Shown here piece by piece: positions 5,815-14,867 of a stretch of DNA of 64,000 nucleotides (positions are counted from its first letter, which is position 1; every line of letters starts with the position of its first letter). A program made the translations under genes and the position numbers. The notes beneath the pieces were generated by a model. The model was given only the letters and a program-made list of their open reading frames with translations. It was not told where the DNA came from and ran no database searches. This DNA comes from an uncultured Clostridia bacterium (GTDB lineage: Bacteria; Bacillota; Clostridia; Oscillospirales; CAG-382), in assembly GCA_944375955.1 (NCBI GenBank), contig CALWBE010000027.1, forward strand, positions 28,227 to 92,226. Direction: 5' to 3'.

Positions 5815-6333
5815 TTATTCCGCTGCTGATTCTGCGGGTACGCCGCCTTCTTTGTCGATAATTGCCTGAATTGCATAAGCAAAATTGTACAAAGGAGACT
5901 GTATGCTTCCGAGGAATTTTGCGATAAGTCCTTCTCTTGACGGGATTGCCGCGAGAGACTTTATCTCATTTGTGTCGATAACGCGGCCGTCGATAAAGCC
6001 TGCCTTAACTTCAAAGTTTTCGTTATCGTCTGCAAATTTGCATAAAACTTTAGCGGGAGCAATGGGGTCGTCTGATACGGCAATTGCCGTCATACCTTCA
6101 AGCACAGATTCAAAGCCTGTAATACCTGCGATTTCAGCGGCTTTTTTAATGTAGGTATTTTTGACAACCTTGTAAGTTACATTGTTCTTGCGGAGCTCAG
6201 CTCTGAGGGCAGTATCTTTTTCAACAGTGATACCGAAGTAATTAACGAGAACGCCGCTCTGAGCATTTTTGATTGCTTCAGCGAGATCTCCGACAAGTTT
6301 CTGCTTTTCTTCAAGAATTTTTGCGCTTGGCAT
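5815..6333 (-). CDS. rplJ: 50S ribosomal protein L10
   Basis: The start MPSAKILEEKQKLVGDLAE... is typical of L10. ATG at 6333 follows GGAGGTGA. It lies directly upstream of rplL. Confidence 0.93.
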   Translation of the reverse strand: MPSAKILEEKQKLVGDLAEAIKNAQSGVLVNYFGITVEKDTALRAELRKNNVTYKVVKNTYIKKAAEIAGITGFESVLEGMTAIAVSDDPIAPAKVLCKFADDNENFEVKAGFIDGRVIDTNEIKSLAAIPSREGLIAKFLGSIQSPLYNFAYAIQAIIDKEGGVPAESAAE

Positions 6334-6521
6334 TGATATTTCACCTCCAATAAAAAAAGTTCTTTTTGGACCGCAAAAGCGTAACCGGAAAAGAACAAGA
6401 AACACAATATATACCGCAGTGCGGATTTTAAGTGAAATACTTATTTCTTTCCTCGGCAGGCGGAAAAAATAACCGTTAGCGTGTAGTCATAACAAATACA
6501 CGACCTGCTTTCTTAGGTCAG
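6334..6521 (-). promoter_or_regulatory. rplJ 5' leader, position consistent with the L10 ribosomal-protein leader (autoregulatory RNA)
   Basis: There is about 188 nt of untranslated leader between a consensus promoter and rplJ. It contains hairpins (for example GACCU...AGGUC near the 5' end). Firmicutes are known to carry an L10(L12)4-binding leader here. I could not run a covariance model. Confidence 0.45.
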
Positions 6522-6527
6522 TACAGA

Positions 6528-6556
6528 ATTATATCATTATTTTACTGTTTTGTCAA
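6528..6556 (-). promoter_or_regulatory. Consensus sigma-A promoter of rplJ-rplL
   Basis: On the minus strand: TTGACA (6556-6551), 17-nt spacer, TATAAT (6533-6528). Confidence 0.8.
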
Positions 6557-6666
6557 TATATTTTTTTAAAACATTTAAAAAAAGGGAAAATATAATAAAT
6601 GAAGGCTATTTTTGCCGAACATTTTATATTTTTACGGCAATATTAAACATAATAAAATAAACTTTT

Positions 6667-7836
6667 CTATTTTTGCGTGTCAGTAACTAATATTTTCCCG
6701 TTTTCAATATATATTCGGTGGGCCCGCTTTCCTATGAGACAAAGTATTTCATAGGAAATTGTGCCGCAGATTTCAGCAAGTTCTTCAGCCGTTACCGTTT
6801 CATTCCCGTCGCTTCCGATTATAGTTGCTTCATCAAAGAGTGTGGCCTCCGGTATATCAGTAACATCGGTCATAGTCATGTCCATACATATTCTGCCTAC
6901 AACCGGCGCGCGCTTACCTTTTATAATAACGCAGCCTTTGTTTGAAAGCAAACGGTTAAATCCGTCGGCATACCCTGCCGCTACAGTAGCCACACGCATA
7001 TCGCGTTCAGCCGTATACGTAAGACCGTATCCGATTTTTTCTCCTTTTTTAACATTAAGGATCTGTGCAATATGCGTTTTAAAGCTCATTACAGGCAATA
7101 GGTCGCTGCCCGGAAATTCACACCCGTAAAGACCTATTCCAAATCGGACAAGATCGCAGTGATACTGTGAGTATTTGATAGTTCCGGCACTGTTGCAGAT
7201 ATGTTTGTAAGAAAATTCTATTCCTTTTTCGGAAAGCAGCGATACTGTTTTTTCAAAACGGTTAAACTGCAGCTGAGTAAAGCTGACATCACTGTTATCA
7301 GCGTCGCAGAAGTGTGAAAAAATTCCCTCGGGAACTATATATGGATTGCATTTTATTATTTCAGCGGCATCGCAGAGCTCGTCAGAGAGACAGTATTCCG
7401 ACACTTTAAAGCCTATACGGTTCATACCGGTATTAAGGGCAATATGGATTTTTATGGGCTCGGGATTTTTACAGTTATAAATATAGCTTTTGAGAAAATC
7501 GAGCGATTCGGAAGAGTCTATTGTAACAGAAATATCATTTTTTACGGCGTCGGAATATCTTGACGGCAACATGGGGCCGAGAACAAGCATCATACCGCCA
7601 ATGCCGCATTTCCGAAGCGTTATTGCTTCGTCGATGTTAGCCACTGCAAAATGCCTTATACCGCAGCGATACATTTTTTCGGCGACCATTTCCGCACCGT
7701 GATTGTATGCGTCGGCTTTTACTACGCCGAGTATTTTTGATTTTCCAAGATTTTTTTGTATAGATTTAAGATTATGTTCAAGATTATCTAAGTTTATCAG
7801 AGCATAAGATGAGAATTTTTCGTATTCCTTTTCCAT
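6667..7836 (-). CDS. alr: Alanine racemase
   Basis: 389 aa. It has the PLP-lysine motif VVKADAYNHGA and is similar to Alr along its full length (GIGLYG, MDMTM block CMDMTMTDV). Confidence 0.93.
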   Translation of the reverse strand: MEKEYEKFSSYALINLDNLEHNLKSIQKNLGKSKILGVVKADAYNHGAEMVAEKMYRCGIRHFAVANIDEAITLRKCGIGGMMLVLGPMLPSRYSDAVKNDISVTIDSSESLDFLKSYIYNCKNPEPIKIHIALNTGMNRIGFKVSEYCLSDELCDAAEIIKCNPYIVPEGIFSHFCDADNSDVSFTQLQFNRFEKTVSLLSEKGIEFSYKHICNSAGTIKYSQYHCDLVRFGIGLYGCEFPGSDLLPVMSFKTHIAQILNVKKGEKIGYGLTYTAERDMRVATVAAGYADGFNRLLSNKGCVIIKGKRAPVVGRICMDMTMTDVTDIPEATLFDEATIIGSDGNETVTAEELAEICGTISYEILCLIGKRAHRIYIENGKILVTDTQK

Positions 7837-7893
7837 AATAATGCCATTCCTTAATATATGAAAAGATAACCGACATGCGGTTTTTTGAAAATA

Positions 7894-8535
7894 TCATGAA
7901 GGATATTTTATTTTTGTAAAATTAATTGTTGCAGATATATCCCCTGAAACGGCGGTATACTGCATCGGAACTCCCGATGCCGCGTCAAAAATCAAAGTGC
8001 ATACAATATCATCGCCAAGTTCAAATATACAGCTTTTAGGCACTGCGGTATCAGGGAAATTACCTTCAGGCATATCGCAGTCTTTTACGGATCCGTGAGG
8101 CAATGAAGAAAGACAAGATGCCGCTTCATCCGAGAAGAAAGAAATTAGAAGATTAATTTTTGTCAAAGCTCCGTCTGGAAGCGGTATTTTCATTCCGTAG
8201 TAATTAAACATTAAAATGTCGGCTTCTCCATTTTCATTGCTTTCAACTGAAAGACCTTCAAATGCTTCGGGAGAAGAAAAAGCAATGTTTACGGTATCTT
8301 GTTTTGAAGCTACCGCACTGCCTTCAATAGTATCGTCGCCGTTTCCTGCAAGAGAGAAATCAAATTCTGCAGAATATCCTTGTGAATACAGAAGTTCAGT
8401 CAGCCGGTCAATACCTGAATCGGCAGAACATGAACCGGCAATAAGCATAGTCATAATTGCCGGAACAACGGAAGCTATCAAAAGAACGCGATGTATTGCC
8501 GGCAAAAGAAAACTGCATGATCGTTTTAGTTTCAT
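7894..8535 (-). CDS. Hypothetical secreted protein / probable lipoprotein
   Basis: 213 aa. An N-terminal hydrophobic signal ends in ...MLIAGSC (lipobox-like). No catalytic motif recognised. Confidence 0.6.
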   Translation of the reverse strand: MKLKRSCSFLLPAIHRVLLIASVVPAIMTMLIAGSCSADSGIDRLTELLYSQGYSAEFDFSLAGNGDDTIEGSAVASKQDTVNIAFSSPEAFEGLSVESNENGEADILMFNYYGMKIPLPDGALTKINLLISFFSDEAASCLSSLPHGSVKDCDMPEGNFPDTAVPKSCIFELGDDIVCTLIFDAASGVPMQYTAVSGDISATINFTKIKYPS

Positions 8536-8680
8536 AAAAAACCGCCTCTTTCCGAATAATTTATCATTGATACAATTTATTCGGAAAACGGCACCGATAT
8601 TCGCAAAGCCATATTACATATTATTATAACTCAAATATTTAATATAAGCAACAGCAAAAACAAAAAATATTCAATTAAAA

Positions 8681-8718
8681 AGTAAAGCGGACATTTTATT
8701 ATAAAATGTCCGCTTTTT
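8681..8718 (-). terminator. Terminator downstream of the 1309-aa gene
   Basis: Perfect hairpin AGCGGACATTTT / AAAATGTCCGCT (8686-8714) with flanking A and T runs. Confidence 0.75.
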
Positions 8719-8728
8719 GCTATATTTG

Positions 8729-11700
8729 TTACTGACCTTGCGATTCAATATATTGATTATAGTCGTCGATAATTTTTTGCGCATATACTGCGTGATCATC
8801 GGCAGCAACGGCAGACTGGGCTATATTTAAAAGACTTGTTGAATAACTTTGTCCGTAAACTGTCACAATTTCTCCGTAATTATCCGTATAAGTGATATAC
8901 GGACGTACGATATAGTCCTGTGCGTAATTTTTTACTTGTATATCTGTAATACAAACAGTATATGAAACATAATTAGGATTGCTTGTATCATACTTTTTTA
9001 CTGCAGGAACAACAGCGGCATTCGGTGTATTTTTATCAAGCCGTGATTCTGAGGAAAGATATTTCGAAGGAATAACCACAAAACCATATCCGGTTTCTTT
9101 GCCTTCTTCACATAAGATATTATCCTGATTATACCCTTCAATAGCAGAAAGTATATTATATCCTATATTGCAGATAAATCTGAGAGCATTGCCTTGTACG
9201 CGGAACTGAGCTCCTATAACGACAAGTTTGTTTATCATATCTTGAGGTGTGTCAGCTTCCGAATAATCGGAATCAAAATCAATAGCAAAACGTATTTCTG
9301 TAATATTATCTGTTTCAGGAATTACATACAAACCGTTTTCATTCGGCAAAAGCAAATTTCCATTGATTGTTGGAACAAGATTTAAAGAATCCGAATTCAA
9401 TTTAAAACCTGATAAAATTCCGTCGGAAAATACCGGTTCTGCACTGCCGCCGTAAACCATAATTTTATAATCAGCCTGAAGAGAGCTGTCAAAAGAAGCG
9501 ACTGAAAGTTCGGCATTATTTATTACAGCAATATGCTTTTTTGAGCTGTCAGTTTTGTAAACAGGCTTAGACGCATCCTGTTTTATAACAAGGGGAGATG
9601 AAATTTGGTAAATATCAGATCCTTTACTGTTTATTATTACAGCTGTATTACCGGCAGATGCTTTTGAGTCAGGGGCAGAAAAGTTGCTCATATAAATTCC
9701 GTTCGGGAAATCCCCTCCGTATATATTGAAAACAGTGTCTCCGAGTATTGCTCCGTATTTGTAATGTCCGGTATATACATTGTTAAATATACCGCCGTAA
9801 AAATTGTAGTTGATATCATCATTAATTGAAACTACTCCGGTTGTTGAATTTCGAACTCCGGCTATCACTCTCTGAAATTCGCCGCCGTAAAAATTATATT
9901 CGGCTTTTACTGATACCGAAGAACTTCCGGTAGTCCACATATAGAATGCCGCTGCGTCTCCATAGCTGCCACCGTAAATATCTATATAGCTGTTTCCGAG
10001 ATTGTAGGAATTGGTACCGAGATTAAGGGTCATATCTTTTGTTCCGGAAGCGTCGATGTTTCCTGAACTTCCTTTTACGGTATTTTCTGTTATAATGTCT
10101 TTCCCAAGCGTTAATCTAACGCCATTTGAGAATAGTCCGGCTTCGTCAACAGGAGCTTTTATAGTTATACGGTCATAGGTAATATTTCCGCCGTATTTTG
10201 CTGTTCTGCCTGAATCTGTAGTCATAAACCATATACGGTTTTTCTGTTGTTCCTCAAGAGTGCTTCCATATCCGCAAACTGTGACATCTTGTCTTTCGGT
10301 TTCAGATATTTCAAGATCTTCAGCAGTATTTAAAATTATGTCTCCTTCAATATATACATTGCCGCCTGAATTGCCTAAAGAATATACAGCGTCTGCAATA
10401 GAAGTGTAAATTTCAGCTCCGACATTTTCTATATAACCGTCTTCGCTTACATATGCTTTGCCGTTTTCAGTAAATATTTCCGGCATTGAATGTACTAAGC
10501 GTATGCCTGAAATATATAATTTGTCGGTATTGTCAATCTGTTTTAAAGGAGTTGTTCCGTACGGATCGAATTTATACTGCCTGATTTTATAGTTATCTTC
10601 GGAAAAGAATGAAAGAGAATCTTCCAGAGAAATAACGCAGCTTGCCCATTGGTTTGTGACAAGATCAGCGGTTTTGTCAAGCTGCCTTAATGATGAATTA
10701 AAGAATCTCCACCGCATTTGCGGCGCCGGATCAAAAGAACTTTCAGTATCATGATAATAGTAATAATCTATTATTATATACGGAGTAATATTTATATCGG
10801 GAAAAGGGTTGCTCCAGTTGTTCATTATCATGCAGTAATCAGAATTGTAGTTGCTTTCTATCTGATCAATCAGCATGGTGTTTCTGCCTTCAAAAGAAAC
10901 ATTATATTGAATTGTCCCAGCATTTTCGTTGCTGCTCCATCCGTTTTTGTTTATGTCCTCTAGTGAAAACTCATATGAAGGATAAGCCTCTTTTCCTCCT
11001 TCAATTATTATTTCGGTCTTCAAAATTTCGCTTTTGGCATTATAATCATCAGCCGCATAAACGGATATTGAGATATCTTCATTTTTAGGAAGATTTGTGA
11101 ACGTATATGAGTATGTTCTGTTGTTTAATACTGACGCGTCGGCGTAATCGTAGTAAAAAGATGTCAGTTCATGGGTTTCAGAATGACCGTTTTTCGTTTC
11201 AGCAGAGAGAAAATAAGATATTACTCTAATATCATCTGATGCTGCCGGAAATGAAACGGAGACTGAATAGTCATCGTTTATTTCGGCTGAGATTTCAGAC
11301 TTTTGAGCGAATACAGGAGCTGTGTTTTCCGAGCTTCTTGTTTCAAAAGTGTATTTGTCAAGATGACTTCCGTCAGGAGAGATATTTGAAATTATCCAAG
11401 GTTCTCCTATAATTTTAATATCTCCGTTTTCAAGGTCTGAATTGTAAAAATCAATTCGGTTTATTCTAACATTTCCTGAAGTGTCAACTTCGACATATTG
11501 CCCCTGCGATAAGTTGCGGTATTCTGCTCCGCTGTATCCTGAAAAGCCCTGTCCGTTTTCCGGAAGGGTGTTTGCGTACAATGAGAAATATTTGGCATAA
11601 CCGTATTGCACGGCTCCTGTGTCAACAGCGGTAAAAGTACCTTTGCCTCCCTGCCATATAGACAGTTCACGATTTAGAAGAGAATGTTCATGACCGCCCC

Positions 11701-12658
11701 ATATAATTACCTGAGGGTATTTTGTAAGTACAGGCATAAGATCTGAAGATGCGGACGAAGCGCTTGGAAGAATTGTATTTTTTACTCTTGCGTGACTTGC
11801 TATAAATACTGCTTTTGACGGATTTTGGGTAGTAATAGCAGAAAGAGTTTCATCAAGCCAAGCTATTGTTTCATCCGAATAAGAAGCGTCGTATGTTTCG
11901 GGTTCAACGGTTATGAAATTATATCCGTTTATTTCCACTATACGATTTCCGTAGTCAAGTCCGTCTGCGCCTAAATATTTGTCTTTGCCGTAAAAAAACT
12001 CATAATTAGGGCCTGATTTTTCATCATATTCTGTTATAAGACTCTTGTTGTATTGACAAATTTGTTCTGCAGTTGCGGAAGGATTTCCGGGAATTTCATT
12101 TTGCCATTGGTAACCGGATATAATTTTCTGATATAATTTTGCCGAATAAAATCCGGTAGTATCCGGTACTCCGTTTTCATTAAGTCCTATACCTCCGGCT
12201 GTGTCGTGGTTGCCGTTAGCATATATTAATGCGGTTCTGTCAGTTTTGTCTGCAGAATTGAAATTTTCAAGAGTTATATCTCGGAAAGCGGCAATTTCCT
12301 TATAATTTTGTTCAAGTTTAGTAGACAAAGACGATATATTTCCGCTCGAATTCATTGCGTCGGTAATATCTCCGTCAATAAAAACTGCATCAAGCTTTGT
12401 GCTTCCGTCCTGGTTTTTTCCAGCAATTGAAAGGAGCGCTTTGTATGCCCGGTCAAGTTTCTGATTGCCGGCTATGTTCCACGTACCGCTCATATGAATA
12501 TCAGAAAGTACACCAAAACGCAAAACAATATTGTTTTCGTCAAATTCATCAGAATTTGTTCCTGCAGCGTAAATATAAGCTGTAGGTAATAGAGACATAA
12601 ATATTGCGGCAATAGTAATAAAAACTGTAATTTTTTTCAGTTTTATAAGATATTGCAT
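8729..12658 (-). CDS. Large secreted multidomain protein: N-terminal calcineurin-like metallophosphoesterase plus several beta-rich domains
   Basis: The start was moved to ATG 12658 (AAGGAG 7 nt upstream; MQYLIKLKKITVFITIAAIF... signal peptide). Metallophosphoesterase motifs are present: LSDIHM, DGDITD, GNHD, GGHEH. Downstream there are five spaced copies of a (Y/F)N(F/I)YGGxF-like motif and a roughly 140-aa domain shared with the neighbouring AraC protein. Confidence 0.85.
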   Translation of the reverse strand: MQYLIKLKKITVFITIAAIFMSLLPTAYIYAAGTNSDEFDENNIVLRFGVLSDIHMSGTWNIAGNQKLDRAYKALLSIAGKNQDGSTKLDAVFIDGDITDAMNSSGNISSLSTKLEQNYKEIAAFRDITLENFNSADKTDRTALIYANGNHDTAGGIGLNENGVPDTTGFYSAKLYQKIISGYQWQNEIPGNPSATAEQICQYNKSLITEYDEKSGPNYEFFYGKDKYLGADGLDYGNRIVEINGYNFITVEPETYDASYSDETIAWLDETLSAITTQNPSKAVFIASHARVKNTILPSASSASSDLMPVLTKYPQVIIWGGHEHSLLNRELSIWQGGKGTFTAVDTGAVQYGYAKYFSLYANTLPENGQGFSGYSGAEYRNLSQGQYVEVDTSGNVRINRIDFYNSDLENGDIKIIGEPWIISNISPDGSHLDKYTFETRSSENTAPVFAQKSEISAEINDDYSVSVSFPAASDDIRVISYFLSAETKNGHSETHELTSFYYDYADASVLNNRTYSYTFTNLPKNEDISISVYAADDYNAKSEILKTEIIIEGGKEAYPSYEFSLEDINKNGWSSNENAGTIQYNVSFEGRNTMLIDQIESNYNSDYCMIMNNWSNPFPDINITPYIIIDYYYYHDTESSFDPAPQMRWRFFNSSLRQLDKTADLVTNQWASCVISLEDSLSFFSEDNYKIRQYKFDPYGTTPLKQIDNTDKLYISGIRLVHSMPEIFTENGKAYVSEDGYIENVGAEIYTSIADAVYSLGNSGGNVYIEGDIILNTAEDLEISETERQDVTVCGYGSTLEEQQKNRIWFMTTDSGRTAKYGGNITYDRITIKAPVDEAGLFSNGVRLTLGKDIITENTVKGSSGNIDASGTKDMTLNLGTNSYNLGNSYIDIYGGSYGDAAAFYMWTTGSSSVSVKAEYNFYGGEFQRVIAGVRNSTTGVVSINDDINYNFYGGIFNNVYTGHYKYGAILGDTVFNIYGGDFPNGIYMSNFSAPDSKASAGNTAVIINSKGSDIYQISSPLVIKQDASKPVYKTDSSKKHIAVINNAELSVASFDSSLQADYKIMVYGGSAEPVFSDGILSGFKLNSDSLNLVPTINGNLLLPNENGLYVIPETDNITEIRFAIDFDSDYSEADTPQDMINKLVVIGAQFRVQGNALRFICNIGYNILSAIEGYNQDNILCEEGKETGYGFVVIPSKYLSSESRLDKNTPNAAVVPAVKKYDTSNPNYVSYTVCITDIQVKNYAQDYIVRPYITYTDNYGEIVTVYGQSYSTSLLNIAQSAVAADDHAVYAQKIIDDYNQYIESQGQ

Positions 12659-12738
12659 GTTTTTTCTCCTTTTTGACAAATATTTTATTGCTTCTATAAT
12701 TATTATATCTTAATATATTTTTGTTTAAATACAGAAAA

Positions 12739-14181
12739 ATGCTGATAAAGTGGACAAATCAGCTATTGACTCAAAATAATTTTTTTGATACACTGAATAT
12801 GGCGGTGATAGATGTGGATCAAAGAAATATTAATTCAGACAATATTAAATTGTTTAGCAGCATATCATGCGAATTTTGTTTACTTGTTTCAGACGGTATA
12901 TGTCCTGTCTTAAACAGTGATTTCCGAATAATTTATACATTAACTGGAAGTATATCTGTAAAATGTTCAGGAATAAATAGTGTTTGCAGCAAAGGTGAGC
13001 TGACGATATTGTCCAAAGAACAATCGCCGGAACTTTTTCCGGACAGTTTTTTTTCTGCTTATTTTGTTGATTTTTCAGGTAAAAGGATATTTGAGATTAT
13101 CGATTTACTGCAGTTAAAAACCGGAAAAATTTATAATATTAAAGCGGACAATATTTTATCAGCTTTTGAACAGATGGAAACTGAATTTTCATTATACATA
13201 AATTTAGGATATAAATTATCGTTGGCAGCATCAATTGTGCATATTTTAACAGCGGTGTCTAGAAATGTTAACAGTATAGTTATTCCCGGGGATAATATAG
13301 GAATAGACGGATTTTCGTGGAAAGATATCGCAATACGCAAAGTTGGGATATTTCATGGCAGAAAGTCAATTATGGTAACACCTAATGTTGAGAATGCCGG
13401 AATTGTCGTACTGGAAAATTATTCTTTGGCAGATTATAAAATAGATTTAAAAAAATTTAAATATGTACAGATGAGTTATTATTATGAAAGTGAAGAAACA
13501 TGTCAAAGATATGCGAGTATACGTATTTTAAGATTGTATTCTGATGAGGAACATTTAAAAAGAGACGAGTATTTTTCAATATATAATGAGTATTATCATA
13601 ACGAGTTTTTTGTGCCTATTGTACGCAACAGATGGGCTCATGCAACATTTTATCTTGATTTTTCTGAAGATATATCCGGTGTAATAAGAGATTGCAGCAG
13701 CGCTTTATTAAGGCAAATCAAAATAAATCCGTTTGGTATATTGCCGGCGGCAGAACTTCCACCGAATGATAAAATGTATATTTCTTCTATAACTTTTTAT
13801 AAAGAGGATCCGAATATATTAAATTACAGAGATGAAAACAAAAGTATTTTAGATGTATTAGATCTTATGAACGAACATTATAATCAGGATAAAGGATTAA
13901 ATTTTTATGCGGACGCTTGTTTTTTGAGTGTATCGCGTTTCAGTCATTGGTTTAAACAGCAAATGGGGATGTCACCTGCAAAATATATAAATGATTTGCG
14001 TATCGGATATGCTAAAAGTTACCTTACTGCTTATTATACAAATTCGATTGAGTATGTATCAAGGCAATGTGGGTATAAAGACCAGCATTATTTTTCAAGG
14101 GTATTTAAAAAAAATGTAGGCATGACGCCTACAGAATACAGAAAAAATTTGAAAATAAAAAATAAAAAATTCCGTCTGTGA
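12739..14181 (+). CDS. AraC family transcriptional regulator, atypically long, with an inserted domain
   Basis: The C-terminal dual HTH of AraC/XylS is present (SVSRFSHWFKQQMGMSPAKYINDLRIGYAKSYL...GYKDQHYFSRVFKKNVGMTPTEYR). The start is uncertain (ATG 12739 chosen; the track gives TTG 12721; ATG 12799 is also possible). Confidence 0.8.
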   Translation: MLIKWTNQLLTQNNFFDTLNMAVIDVDQRNINSDNIKLFSSISCEFCLLVSDGICPVLNSDFRIIYTLTGSISVKCSGINSVCSKGELTILSKEQSPELFPDSFFSAYFVDFSGKRIFEIIDLLQLKTGKIYNIKADNILSAFEQMETEFSLYINLGYKLSLAASIVHILTAVSRNVNSIVIPGDNIGIDGFSWKDIAIRKVGIFHGRKSIMVTPNVENAGIVVLENYSLADYKIDLKKFKYVQMSYYYESEETCQRYASIRILRLYSDEEHLKRDEYFSIYNEYYHNEFFVPIVRNRWAHATFYLDFSEDISGVIRDCSSALLRQIKINPFGILPAAELPPNDKMYISSITFYKEDPNILNYRDENKSILDVLDLMNEHYNQDKGLNFYADACFLSVSRFSHWFKQQMGMSPAKYINDLRIGYAKSYLTAYYTNSIEYVSRQCGYKDQHYFSRVFKKNVGMTPTEYRKNLKIKNKKFRL

Positions 14182-14207: not shown

Positions 14208-14867
14208 TTAAATAATTTTATGTTCATAATCAAAATCGCAGTGCTTTAAAAATTCTCTTGCCATTAAGAGAGCTCCTACGCGGTTTGGATGAACCCTGTC
14301 CCAGGCTATATAGGCTGAGTGACGTGATTTGCAGTAATTTTCAAACATAAGCTGAAAATCAATAAATACGCAGCCGTGTTTTTCAGACAAATCTCTGCAT
14401 ATAGCGGTATACTCGTCCATTCTTTTACGCATGGGATCATTTCTGTTCGGTTCAATATAATACGGAGAAGCGATAAAAACGCCCTTTACCTTATTTTTAA
14501 GCATAGAGATCATTTTTTCTATATTTCTGCTGTATTCCTCTGGAGTTACCTGATCGTTTACCTGCGGAAGATCAAATTGGCGCCATACATCGTTTATGCC
14601 TATGCATATGGATACCCAATCGGGTGACTGTGAAATTACGTCGCGTTCGAAGCGTTCAAGAAGAGTGCGGCTTGTATTGCCGGAAATACCGGCATTTACA
14701 ACTCTTGTCAGCACTTCCGGATAGCAAGCTGACAAAAGATTTTCAATCTCACGAACATATCCATTGCCTAATGCGTCAAACAATCCTTCTCCTACAGGAT
14801 TAGCACTGCCCATGTCGGTGACAGAGTCTCCGGCAAAAAGAATTTTTTCATAATCTTTGAAAATCAT
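14208..14867 (-). CDS. SGNH/GDSL family hydrolase (lipase/acylhydrolase-like)
   Basis: 219 aa with all four SGNH blocks: FAGDSVTD, GISGNTS, GINDV, DRVHPN. Confidence 0.88.
   Translation of the reverse strand: MIFKDYEKILFAGDSVTDMGSANPVGEGLFDALGNGYVREIENLLSACYPEVLTRVVNAGISGNTSRTLLERFERDVISQSPDWVSICIGINDVWRQFDLPQVNDQVTPEEYSRNIEKMISMLKNKVKGVFIASPYYIEPNRNDPMRKRMDEYTAICRDLSEKHGCVFIDFQLMFENYCKSRHSAYIAWDRVHPNRVGALLMAREFLKHCDFDYEHKII

Follow-up and report, generated by a model that had tools for sequence, protein, structure and literature searches.

AraC-family regulators are among the commonest bacterial sensors and, to our knowledge, nearly all of the known ones read small molecules by means of a cupin or a related N-terminal domain. 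In both AraC of Escherichia coli, which acts at araBAD, and BgaR of Clostridium perfringens, an N-terminal cupin and dimerization helices are followed by a C-terminal double helix-turn-helix (HTH), and the target gene is transcribed divergently. The known operator layout of AraC is the I1-I2 pair, direct repeats with a 21-bp period whose proximal member abuts a weak −35. In Clostridium thermocellum, anti-sigma-I factors of the RsgI type detect polysaccharide with modules (CBM3, CBM42, or PA14) that are related to cellulosomal ones; these factors span the membrane with the carbohydrate-binding module (CBM) outside the cell, and the signal is passed by proteolysis to a sigma-I factor (PMC4711584, PMC6852018, PMC10328401). 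The locus described here has points in common with all of these. It lies in a 64,000-nucleotide stretch of DNA (the window) from an uncultured Clostridia bacterium of the Oscillospirales (GenBank assembly GCA_944375955.1, contig CALWBE010000027.1, positions 28,227 to 92,226) and consists of two divergent genes. The gene at 8729-12658 (−) encodes a giant secreted metallophosphoesterase (MPE; P0001, 1309 aa from ATG 12658), and the gene at 12799-14181 (+), starting probably at ATG 12799 or GTG 12814, encodes an AraC-type regulator (P0002). Each protein carries a copy of the same CBM-like module. By its DNA-binding domain, its cupin, and its operator layout, the regulator belongs to the AraC/XylS family; the inserted module makes its architecture new.

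The initial annotation, made by eye from the translations, had reported four collinear pairs of peptides shared by the enzyme and the middle of the regulator. All four pairs are present in the two translations, and the boundaries given for the shared segments were essentially right: the module occupies 10469-10984 (−) in the MPE (aa 566-737 of P0001, the envelope of a hidden Markov model [HMM]) and about 13273-13806 (+) in the regulator (aa 185-362 of P0002, from BLASTP, shuffles, and hhalign). Full-length BLASTP with composition adjustment returned a single collinear alignment of MPE aa 596-736 with AraC aa 211-367 (nucleotides 10472-10894 on the minus strand and 13351-13821 on the plus strand), with 38.5 bits, E = 1e-6, and 22% identity. 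The similarity reaches further toward the N terminus than had been seen by eye, with LNKNGWSS aligned to IGINGFSW. Tyr, Ile, and Asn are abundant in both segments, and a compositional resemblance was one outcome that the annotation itself had named as fatal to its claim. However, the domain-versus-domain score was 39.3 bits, compared with 14.0 ± 2.5 (maximum, 23.1) for 300 shuffles of the AraC segment, a z of about 10. Aligned by hhalign, a five-sequence profile of the MPE domain and a five-sequence profile of the AraC domain matched with a probability of 97.9% (E = 3.2e-13, 134 columns). The predicted order of strands is likewise the same in both copies. Composition does not account for these scores, and we regard the homology of the two modules as practically certain.

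The MPE copy was modeled with AlphaFold2 (AF2) from an alignment of 49 sequences; the model had a predicted local distance difference test (pLDDT) value of 94 and a predicted template modeling (pTM) score of 0.89 and showed a ten-stranded beta-sandwich with one helix over ~170 aa. In the AF2 model of the regulator, the ten strands and the helix of the AraC copy follow one to one, with an extra insert of ~20 residues between strands 6 and 7. When the MPE module was compared with the PDB by Foldseek, the best matches were CBM22 (4xup, 1dyo), CBM30 (1wmx, 2c24), and CBM16 (2zey); others were the N-terminal CBM-like domains of GH50 agarases and the receptor-binding domains of phage tailspikes (E, 1e-4 to 1e-3; probability, 1.0; TM, 0.45 to 0.57; identity, 8 to 13%). 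Most of the top 50 matches were CBM22, CBM30, CBM16, or GH50 CBM-like domains. By these models, the module has the fold class of carbohydrate-binding modules, with no close solved relative, and the surmise of a glycan-binding type is borne out at the level of the fold.

The module could not be placed in any described family. The initial annotation had raised the possibility of a known CBM or domain of unknown function, and none was found: neither window copy matched a Pfam model over the module at E ≤ 1, a Pfam scan of 49 members of the module family gave one marginal hit (CBM_4_9, E = 0.024), which places the family outside the existing CBM models, the NCBIfam search returned no match to the module, and a sequence search of the PDB with the module profile gave no match at E ≤ 10. 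The module shares with the CBM22, CBM30, CBM16, and CBM4_9 jelly-rolls both the fold class and a setting in modular secreted enzymes and in S-layer homology (SLH) or dockerin proteins. It differs from them in its low TM scores and identities, in lacking a Pfam CBM match or a PDB sequence match, and in having its own set of motifs (NG[WF]S, F-x-G-[RK], YYY, N-x-W, Q-x-[KH]-x-x-P-[FY]-G, and D-x-x-Y-I).

The regulator model (pLDDT, 83.7; residues numbered as in a 480-aa form of the protein) comprises a cupin (residues 43 to 113), two long helices (137 to 178), the beta-sandwich (179 to 354), a short hinge of low confidence, and an HTH domain (370 to 479). The cupin and helices, encoded at 12844-13272 (+), were assigned by AF2 and Foldseek as an AraC/BgaR-type sensor and dimerization domain. 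In Foldseek, the cupin part matched the BgaR lactose sensor (6nwo; TMt 0.71, rmsd 3.2 Å) and the arabinose-binding domain of AraC (2arc; TMt 0.56 to 0.62); by sequence, weak AraC_binding and Cupin_2 Pfam matches were found in two homologs only. The inserted module was modeled with a pLDDT of about 88 to 96 over most of its length and with one 10-residue block at 78. The DNA-binding domain, with two HTH motifs (13846-14175, +), scored 75.2 bits against HTH_18 (cut-off, 33.6) and 65.5 bits against HTH_AraC (cut-off, 26.6), which puts the protein in the AraC/XylS family, and it superposed on AraC-family DNA-binding domains with an rmsd of 1.1 to 2.6 Å in Foldseek. Pfam, AF2, and Foldseek therefore agree with the proposal that the extra length of the regulator is a domain set between the N-terminal region and the HTH.

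Thus, compared with AraC and BgaR, the regulator has a CBM-like beta-sandwich of ~175 aa where a short flexible linker normally joins the dimerization and DNA-binding domains. No solved AraC-family structure among the Foldseek matches bears such an insert, and in a full-text literature search no AraC protein with an insert of the CBM type was found described, although absence there is not proof. Two other families of regulators invite comparison. As with RsgI, the regulator bears a module akin to the presumed substrate-binding module of the secreted enzyme that it probably controls, so that regulation would be tuned to the substrate. Unlike RsgI, the regulator is predicted to bind DNA itself and has neither a signal peptide nor a membrane helix; no Pfam match to an RsgI-type or membrane domain was found in it, and the likeness is one of logic only. 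TIGR04094, the YSIRK-targeted surface antigen transcriptional regulator, is also an AraC-family protein encoded, in Firmicutes, beside the gene for a large secreted or surface protein, and its HTH aligned with E = 1e-14. At 54 bits, however, the score falls far short of the family cut-off (200), and the alignment is confined to the HTH, so the regulator is not a member.

About a dozen (12) clusters of AraC-family proteins of 436 to 456 aa carry the module at the same position. Among 11 members of this subfamily, the module had a mean pairwise identity of 38.9% and 20 invariant residues, which approaches the HTH domain (45.9%, 14 invariant residues), while the cupin (19.5%) and the helical linker (20.1%) had no invariant residue at all. 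Many of the 20 invariant module residues are polar or aromatic (E, N, R, Q, K, W, and Y), and from the alternation of the strands they appear to be surface exposed. The lack of any invariant cupin residue speaks against a conserved effector pocket there, and the effector site may have moved from its place in AraC and BgaR. Because the module is conserved nearly as well as the HTH and the cupin is not, the module is the part most likely to read the signal, although we hold the case that it does so to be about evenly balanced. This contrast in conservation is the best evidence that the conserved function of these regulators lies in the module and not in the cupin pocket. A side observation concerns rate: among species of one GTDB genus (G000 to G003), regulators were 32 to 42% identical, cupins about 20%, and MPE catalytic regions about 60%. 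As judged from these identities, the locus, and the cupin above all, seems to evolve unusually fast for a comparison within a genus.

A regulator that controls the MPE gene could also receive a sugar signal through its cupin and use the module either as a structural element (a rigid spacer or an oligomerization or docking domain) that sets the DNA-binding domains on the 21-bp repeats or to bind some other effector. The complete BgaR/AraC-like cupin and the dimerization helices fit this alternative, and so does the generic occurrence of the module, often in tandem, in >150 unrelated surface proteins, which suggests a structural or general adhesive role; in addition, the AraC clade of modules is not demonstrably sister to the MPE clade. 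Against it stand the poor conservation of the cupin just described, the number and chemistry of the invariant module residues, and five derived residues common to the AraC and MPE clades (see below). A spacer would not be expected to match the conservation of a DNA-binding domain. We consider a purely structural module, or one that binds an unrelated effector, rather unlikely.

The pairing of the two genes recurs at related loci, most of which are known from short metagenomic contigs. Counting lineages with an informative contig, the regulator gene lies divergently beside an orthologous MPE gene in nine (10 contigs; the window, L001, L008, L016, L017, L019, L021, L025, and L026), and the same divergent pair is present in two further genomes of the same genus (G001 and G002). 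The paired regulators are only 27 to 42% identical to each other. All paired MPEs that reach aa ~555 to 730 bear the module there, with the exception of L008, so related loci do keep both copies, a check that the initial annotation had set for its idea. In L016 (SRR27608057_818445), the flanking genes (a small lipoprotein gene, alr, and rplJ) are those of window positions 5815-14181, but the pair is turned around with respect to them, and therefore the MPE-AraC pair moves as a unit. There is one clear exception to the pairing: in G003 (GCA_964401015.1), the regulator gene lies by GH10, GH127, and aldose-epimerase genes, and the MPE gene, which encodes two copies of the module, lies on another contig next to a rumA-like gene. 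The GH10 gene beside the AraC homolog in L002 does not carry the module. Within the genus, both proteins were found in 4 species genomes and neither in 6. Across 400 genomes from 178 genera of the order, the fusion was found in the window's genome only; four candidates were scored per genome, so these absences are soft. The AraC clade of modules was seen in a single genus. These distributions show that the system is narrow and lineage-specific.

The region upstream of the MPE gene provides a second line of evidence. The putative MPE promoter, found by a promoter scan, lies at 12702-12729 (−), with −35 TTTAAA at 12729-12724, a 16-nt spacer, and −10 TATAAT at 12707-12702. A conserved box, R1 (12750-12770, −; GTCAATAGCTGATTTGTCCAC on the MPE strand; consensus, GTCAAYAGCnnnTTTGTCCAC), is present in nine MPE upstream regions. 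In 9/9 loci the box is followed by exactly 20 nt, a weak −35 (TTTACA; TTTAAA in the window), 17 nt (16 in the window), and the −10, and then by a leader with a ribosome-binding site (RBS) and the MPE start codon. The same layout is found in G003, where the AraC gene is elsewhere. When the box was compared with the sequence following it, 96 of 189 positions were identical at a shift of 21 bp, compared with 19 to 67 at the other shifts between 12 and 31, and each of the nine loci matched at 9 to 12 of 21 positions at the 21-bp shift. The 20-nt "spacer" is therefore a degenerate copy of the box, and the two form 21-bp direct repeats. The promoter-proximal repeat, R2 (12729-12749, −; TTTATCAGCATTTTTCTGTAT on the MPE strand), was recognized by this self-match; it abuts the −35 or overlaps it by 1 nt and is the less conserved of the two. 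R1 and R2 occupy about −77 to −36 of the MPE promoter. A putative tandem direct-repeat operator at the −35, as in the cupin-type AraC subgroup, is thus predicted in all nine loci, with the 21-bp period and the proximal repeat abutting a weak −35 as at araBAD.

Conserved divergent synteny, the co-occurrence of the two proteins, and a tandem-repeat operator that keeps its register with the MPE promoter make it very probable that the regulator controls the MPE gene, as the initial annotation had supposed, and it probably does so through R1 and R2. AraC genes are very common beside genes of many types, and the neighborhood could have arisen by coincidence, with no regulation of the MPE gene. However, the pairing has been kept in nine lineages while the regulators diverged to 27 to 42% identity, and the operator, in its fixed register, stays with the MPE gene where the pair has split. 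Taken with the alignment statistics, these data make chance, whether in the resemblance of the modules or in the proximity of the genes, a very improbable explanation. The initial annotation had also said that a module scattered at random through unrelated proteins would count against its proposal. The module did prove to be widespread in unrelated proteins (at least 150 clusters), but its linkage here is not random, since the AraC-MPE pairing is conserved.

By analogy with araBAD, the regulator, probably a dimer, would bind the two 21-bp repeats. The well-conserved distal repeat R1 would correspond to araI1, and the weaker proximal repeat R2, at a poor −35, to araI2; the MPE gene would be switched on when the proximal repeat is filled. 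Activation is what we infer from this geometry. The putative promoter of the AraC-type gene, also from the promoter scan, lies at 12766-12794 (+), with −35 TTGACT inside R1, a 17-nt spacer, and −10 TACACT. At the other loci, the TTGACA at the box's end stands 17 nt before a −10, beyond which come a leader that includes an RBS and the start codon of the AraC gene. Since the end of R1 is the −35 of the regulator's own promoter, binding to the distal repeat should also autoregulate the regulator gene. A scan of the genome (2.18 Mb) found the strict box once, at the locus itself, which indicates a local, single-target regulator. A search for further regulon members with a loose form of the box gave 12 matches, compared with about 6 expected, and no additional members were accepted.

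Three further sites related to this region were observed. At 12673-12700 (+), inside the 5′ untranslated region of the MPE gene, there is a perfect sigma-70 consensus (TTGACA-16-TATAAT) aimed across R2 and R1 at the AraC gene. This may be an additional araC promoter, shut off by an occupied operator, or else a fortuitous match in AT-rich DNA. In the genome with the split pair, upstream of the gene for P0006, the unpaired AraC homolog, L002:9930-9965 holds a degenerate box that is 2 nt longer (GCGGATTTTTTATGCGCGGTGAC). The MPE gene of that genome retains the GTGGACAAAAT half of the box (L027:6027-6047). The last two sites suggest, from their sequences, that each gene kept a site after separation of the pair.

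The operator also bears on where the regulator begins. Its open reading frame (ORF) was first listed as 12721-14181 (+), 486 aa from TTG 12721, and the public-database call is 480 aa from ATG 12739. In the 480-aa form, residues 1 to 35 do not align to homologs and have an AF2 pLDDT of <50, and the operator and the regulator's own promoter fall within the first 26 codons of the called ORF. Because a conserved operator and promoter lie inside the called 5′ end, the N terminus called from TTG 12721 or ATG 12739 is probably not genuine, and translation more likely starts at about 12799-12814. ATG 12799 is 4 nt past the −10 TACACT, and a start there could therefore give a leaderless mRNA; the alternative, GTG 12814, is preceded by a Shine-Dalgarno-like GGCGGTG. 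With the later start, the intergenic gap between the two genes is about 140 bp and not the ~80 bp originally given. For the MPE gene, the ORF extends over 8729-12679 (−; 1316 aa), while the database form has 1309 aa and starts at ATG 12658; P0009, a 1309-aa database protein that is 98% identical to the MPE, begins at the same ATG.

The MPE consists, in order, of a signal peptide, an MPE catalytic region, an Fn3-like domain, the CBM-like module, a YGG-repeat beta-helix-like region, and a C-terminal domain. Its N terminus has a signal-like hydrophobic stretch, and the Fn3 match downstream of the Metallophos domain is weak. The calcineurin-like metallophosphoesterase domain (11681-12523, −; aa 53-333 of P0001) belongs to Pfam PF00149 (Metallophos; 31.8 bits against a cut-off of 21.5, E = 2.4e-7), and the motifs SDIH, DGDITD, GNHD, and GGHEH are visible in it. 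The core metal-binding residues (D/H of DIH, G/D of GD, GNHD, and GGH-x-H) are invariant in 8 orthologs, across which the catalytic regions are 56 to 65% identical. The CBM-like module would hold the enzyme on its presumed glycan or phosphoglycan substrate.

Similar assemblies were seen elsewhere. The window's genome builds several secreted proteins of 1000 to 2100 aa from a shared kit of modules (C51:4548-10937, C1:4249-8199, and C51:34963-37959, all on the minus strand). The 2129-aa protein at C51:4548-10937 has an SGNH head, a CBM-like module, two YGG-repeat beta-helix-like regions, and a C-terminal domain of the MPE type, and P0010, a 2254-aa protein of a relative, is a fusion of an MPE unit and an SGNH unit with a CBM-like module in each. 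Convergent to the regulator gene in the window, 14208-14867 (−) encodes a 219-aa SGNH/GDSL-type hydrolase without a signal peptide. The fusion in P0010 gave the idea of a functional link to this adjacent hydrolase, which was rejected: the SGNH domains compare with E = 0.15, and the neighbor is not kept at other loci.

When 1.84 billion representative proteins were searched with a profile, at least 150 clusters (at 50% identity) proved to carry the module, and 90 of these had E ≤ 1e-10. The carriers are mostly proteins of 900 to 3300 aa with 2 to 8 copies. In eight large carriers that were scanned, SLH scored above its Pfam cut-off in seven, and a marginal dockerin below the cut-off was found in one. 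The module is a general building block of clostridial surface proteins.

From these results, one can picture a lineage-specific, self-contained pair in which an enzyme with a CBM-like module is accompanied by a regulator whose homologous module is the likely reader of the signal; this is a plausible reading that falls a little short of an even chance. Since the regulator has no signal peptide or membrane helix, its module would act on an imported fragment in the cytoplasm, and the most economical signal would be a soluble piece of the polymer to which the enzyme's module would attach outside the cell. A more specific proposal is that the module is a cytoplasmic glycan or phosphoglycan sensor that was captured from the binding module of the controlled enzyme and has superseded the cupin pocket, which we regard as possible but doubtful.

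Several observations weigh against the idea of a captured sensor and a common ligand. The regulator retains a complete cupin domain, the effector site in AraC and BgaR, and no sugar transporter is linked to the locus. The likeness of the module to CBMs exists at the level of fold only (TM ~0.5, 8 to 13% identity), and the catalytic region of the MPE has no relative in the PDB by sequence or profile. In L008 the MPE, of which 654 aa are present on the contig (L008:1-1962, −), has its Fn3-like region followed by a Gly/Ala-rich region, with the module absent at the usual position; the AraC partner (P0008) keeps its module. The window's genome encodes three more giant module proteins with no AraC gene nearby, and since the module is so promiscuous, its presence in two neighboring genes need not mean a shared ligand. 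An HMM built from the AraC copies alone scored SLH-type copies at up to 80 bits and MPE copies at 67 bits. The trees point the same way. In the careful C20 tree, the AraC and MPE copies together are not a clade; they were joined in 16% of bootstrap trees, and the approximately unbiased (AU) test gave p = 0.46.

The AraC copies formed one clade in the domain trees (SH-aLRT, 99; UFBoot/SH-aLRT, 100/99), and therefore the fusion arose once; the MPE copies also formed one clade (100/99). In a quick tree, the two stood apart on a weak backbone, while a tree constrained to unite them was 8.7 log-likelihood units above the quick free search (AU p = 0.59). As the AU test and the bootstrap are undecided, we do not claim that the regulator's module is a paralog taken from its neighbor. 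The initial annotation had called the two copies paralogs; their homology stands, but both are clades within a far larger family of extracellular modules, and a special sister relation between the AraC copy and the enzyme's copy is neither supported nor rejected (AU p = 0.46 to 0.59; 16% bootstrap).

A closer tie between the two clades is nevertheless suggested by individual residues. Defining a shared derived column as one whose residue is present in ≥70% of both clades and in <25% of the other 202 copies, we found five columns common to the AraC and MPE clades, compared with two for AraC plus others and none for MPE plus others. Among the five are the Ser residues of NG[WF]S and of Y-I-S, the Lys of R-Q-x-K (where other copies have His), and an Arg. 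On these five residues and the strong conservation of the module rests the suggestion that the regulator's module reads the same molecule as the MPE's module, which we put forward only tentatively. The module could instead sense a ligand with a specificity that has diverged from that of the MPE copy, the homology reflecting reuse of a building block that is abundant locally. The two copies are 22% identical, long branches separate the clades and their sisterhood is undecided, and the AraC copy has its ~20-residue insert between strands 6 and 7; moreover, CBM families often switch specificity by a few substitutions. This explanation sits poorly with the conserved gene pairing and co-occurrence and with the polar residues S, R, K, and S, which are common to the two clades and rare elsewhere in the family, and we judge it improbable. 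That the module binds a ligand at all, and what that ligand may be, is what we infer from conservation and fold class.

Whatever the ligand, the analysis defines an unannotated family of ~170-aa modules that is abundant in clostridial S-layer and cellulosome-type proteins. Here, a type of module that is normally extracellular is built into the linker of an AraC protein, is conserved almost as well as the DNA-binding domain, and is linked to an enzyme that bears a homolog of it. If the regulator's module was indeed captured as a sensor, the locus would be a one-component counterpart of CBM sensing by RsgI and sigma-I factors, in which enzyme and regulator read the same molecule outside and inside the cell, respectively, and it would be the founding case of both a new CBM-like family and a three-domain AraC architecture. 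If the module binds a fragment of the substrate, the ligand of the regulator would offer a handle on the substrate of these conserved giant secreted phosphoesterases, and the module, with its defined 42-bp operator, would be a new portable sensor. Such binding would also give gut Clostridia a simple means of adjusting how much of a very large enzyme they secrete to whether its polymer is present.

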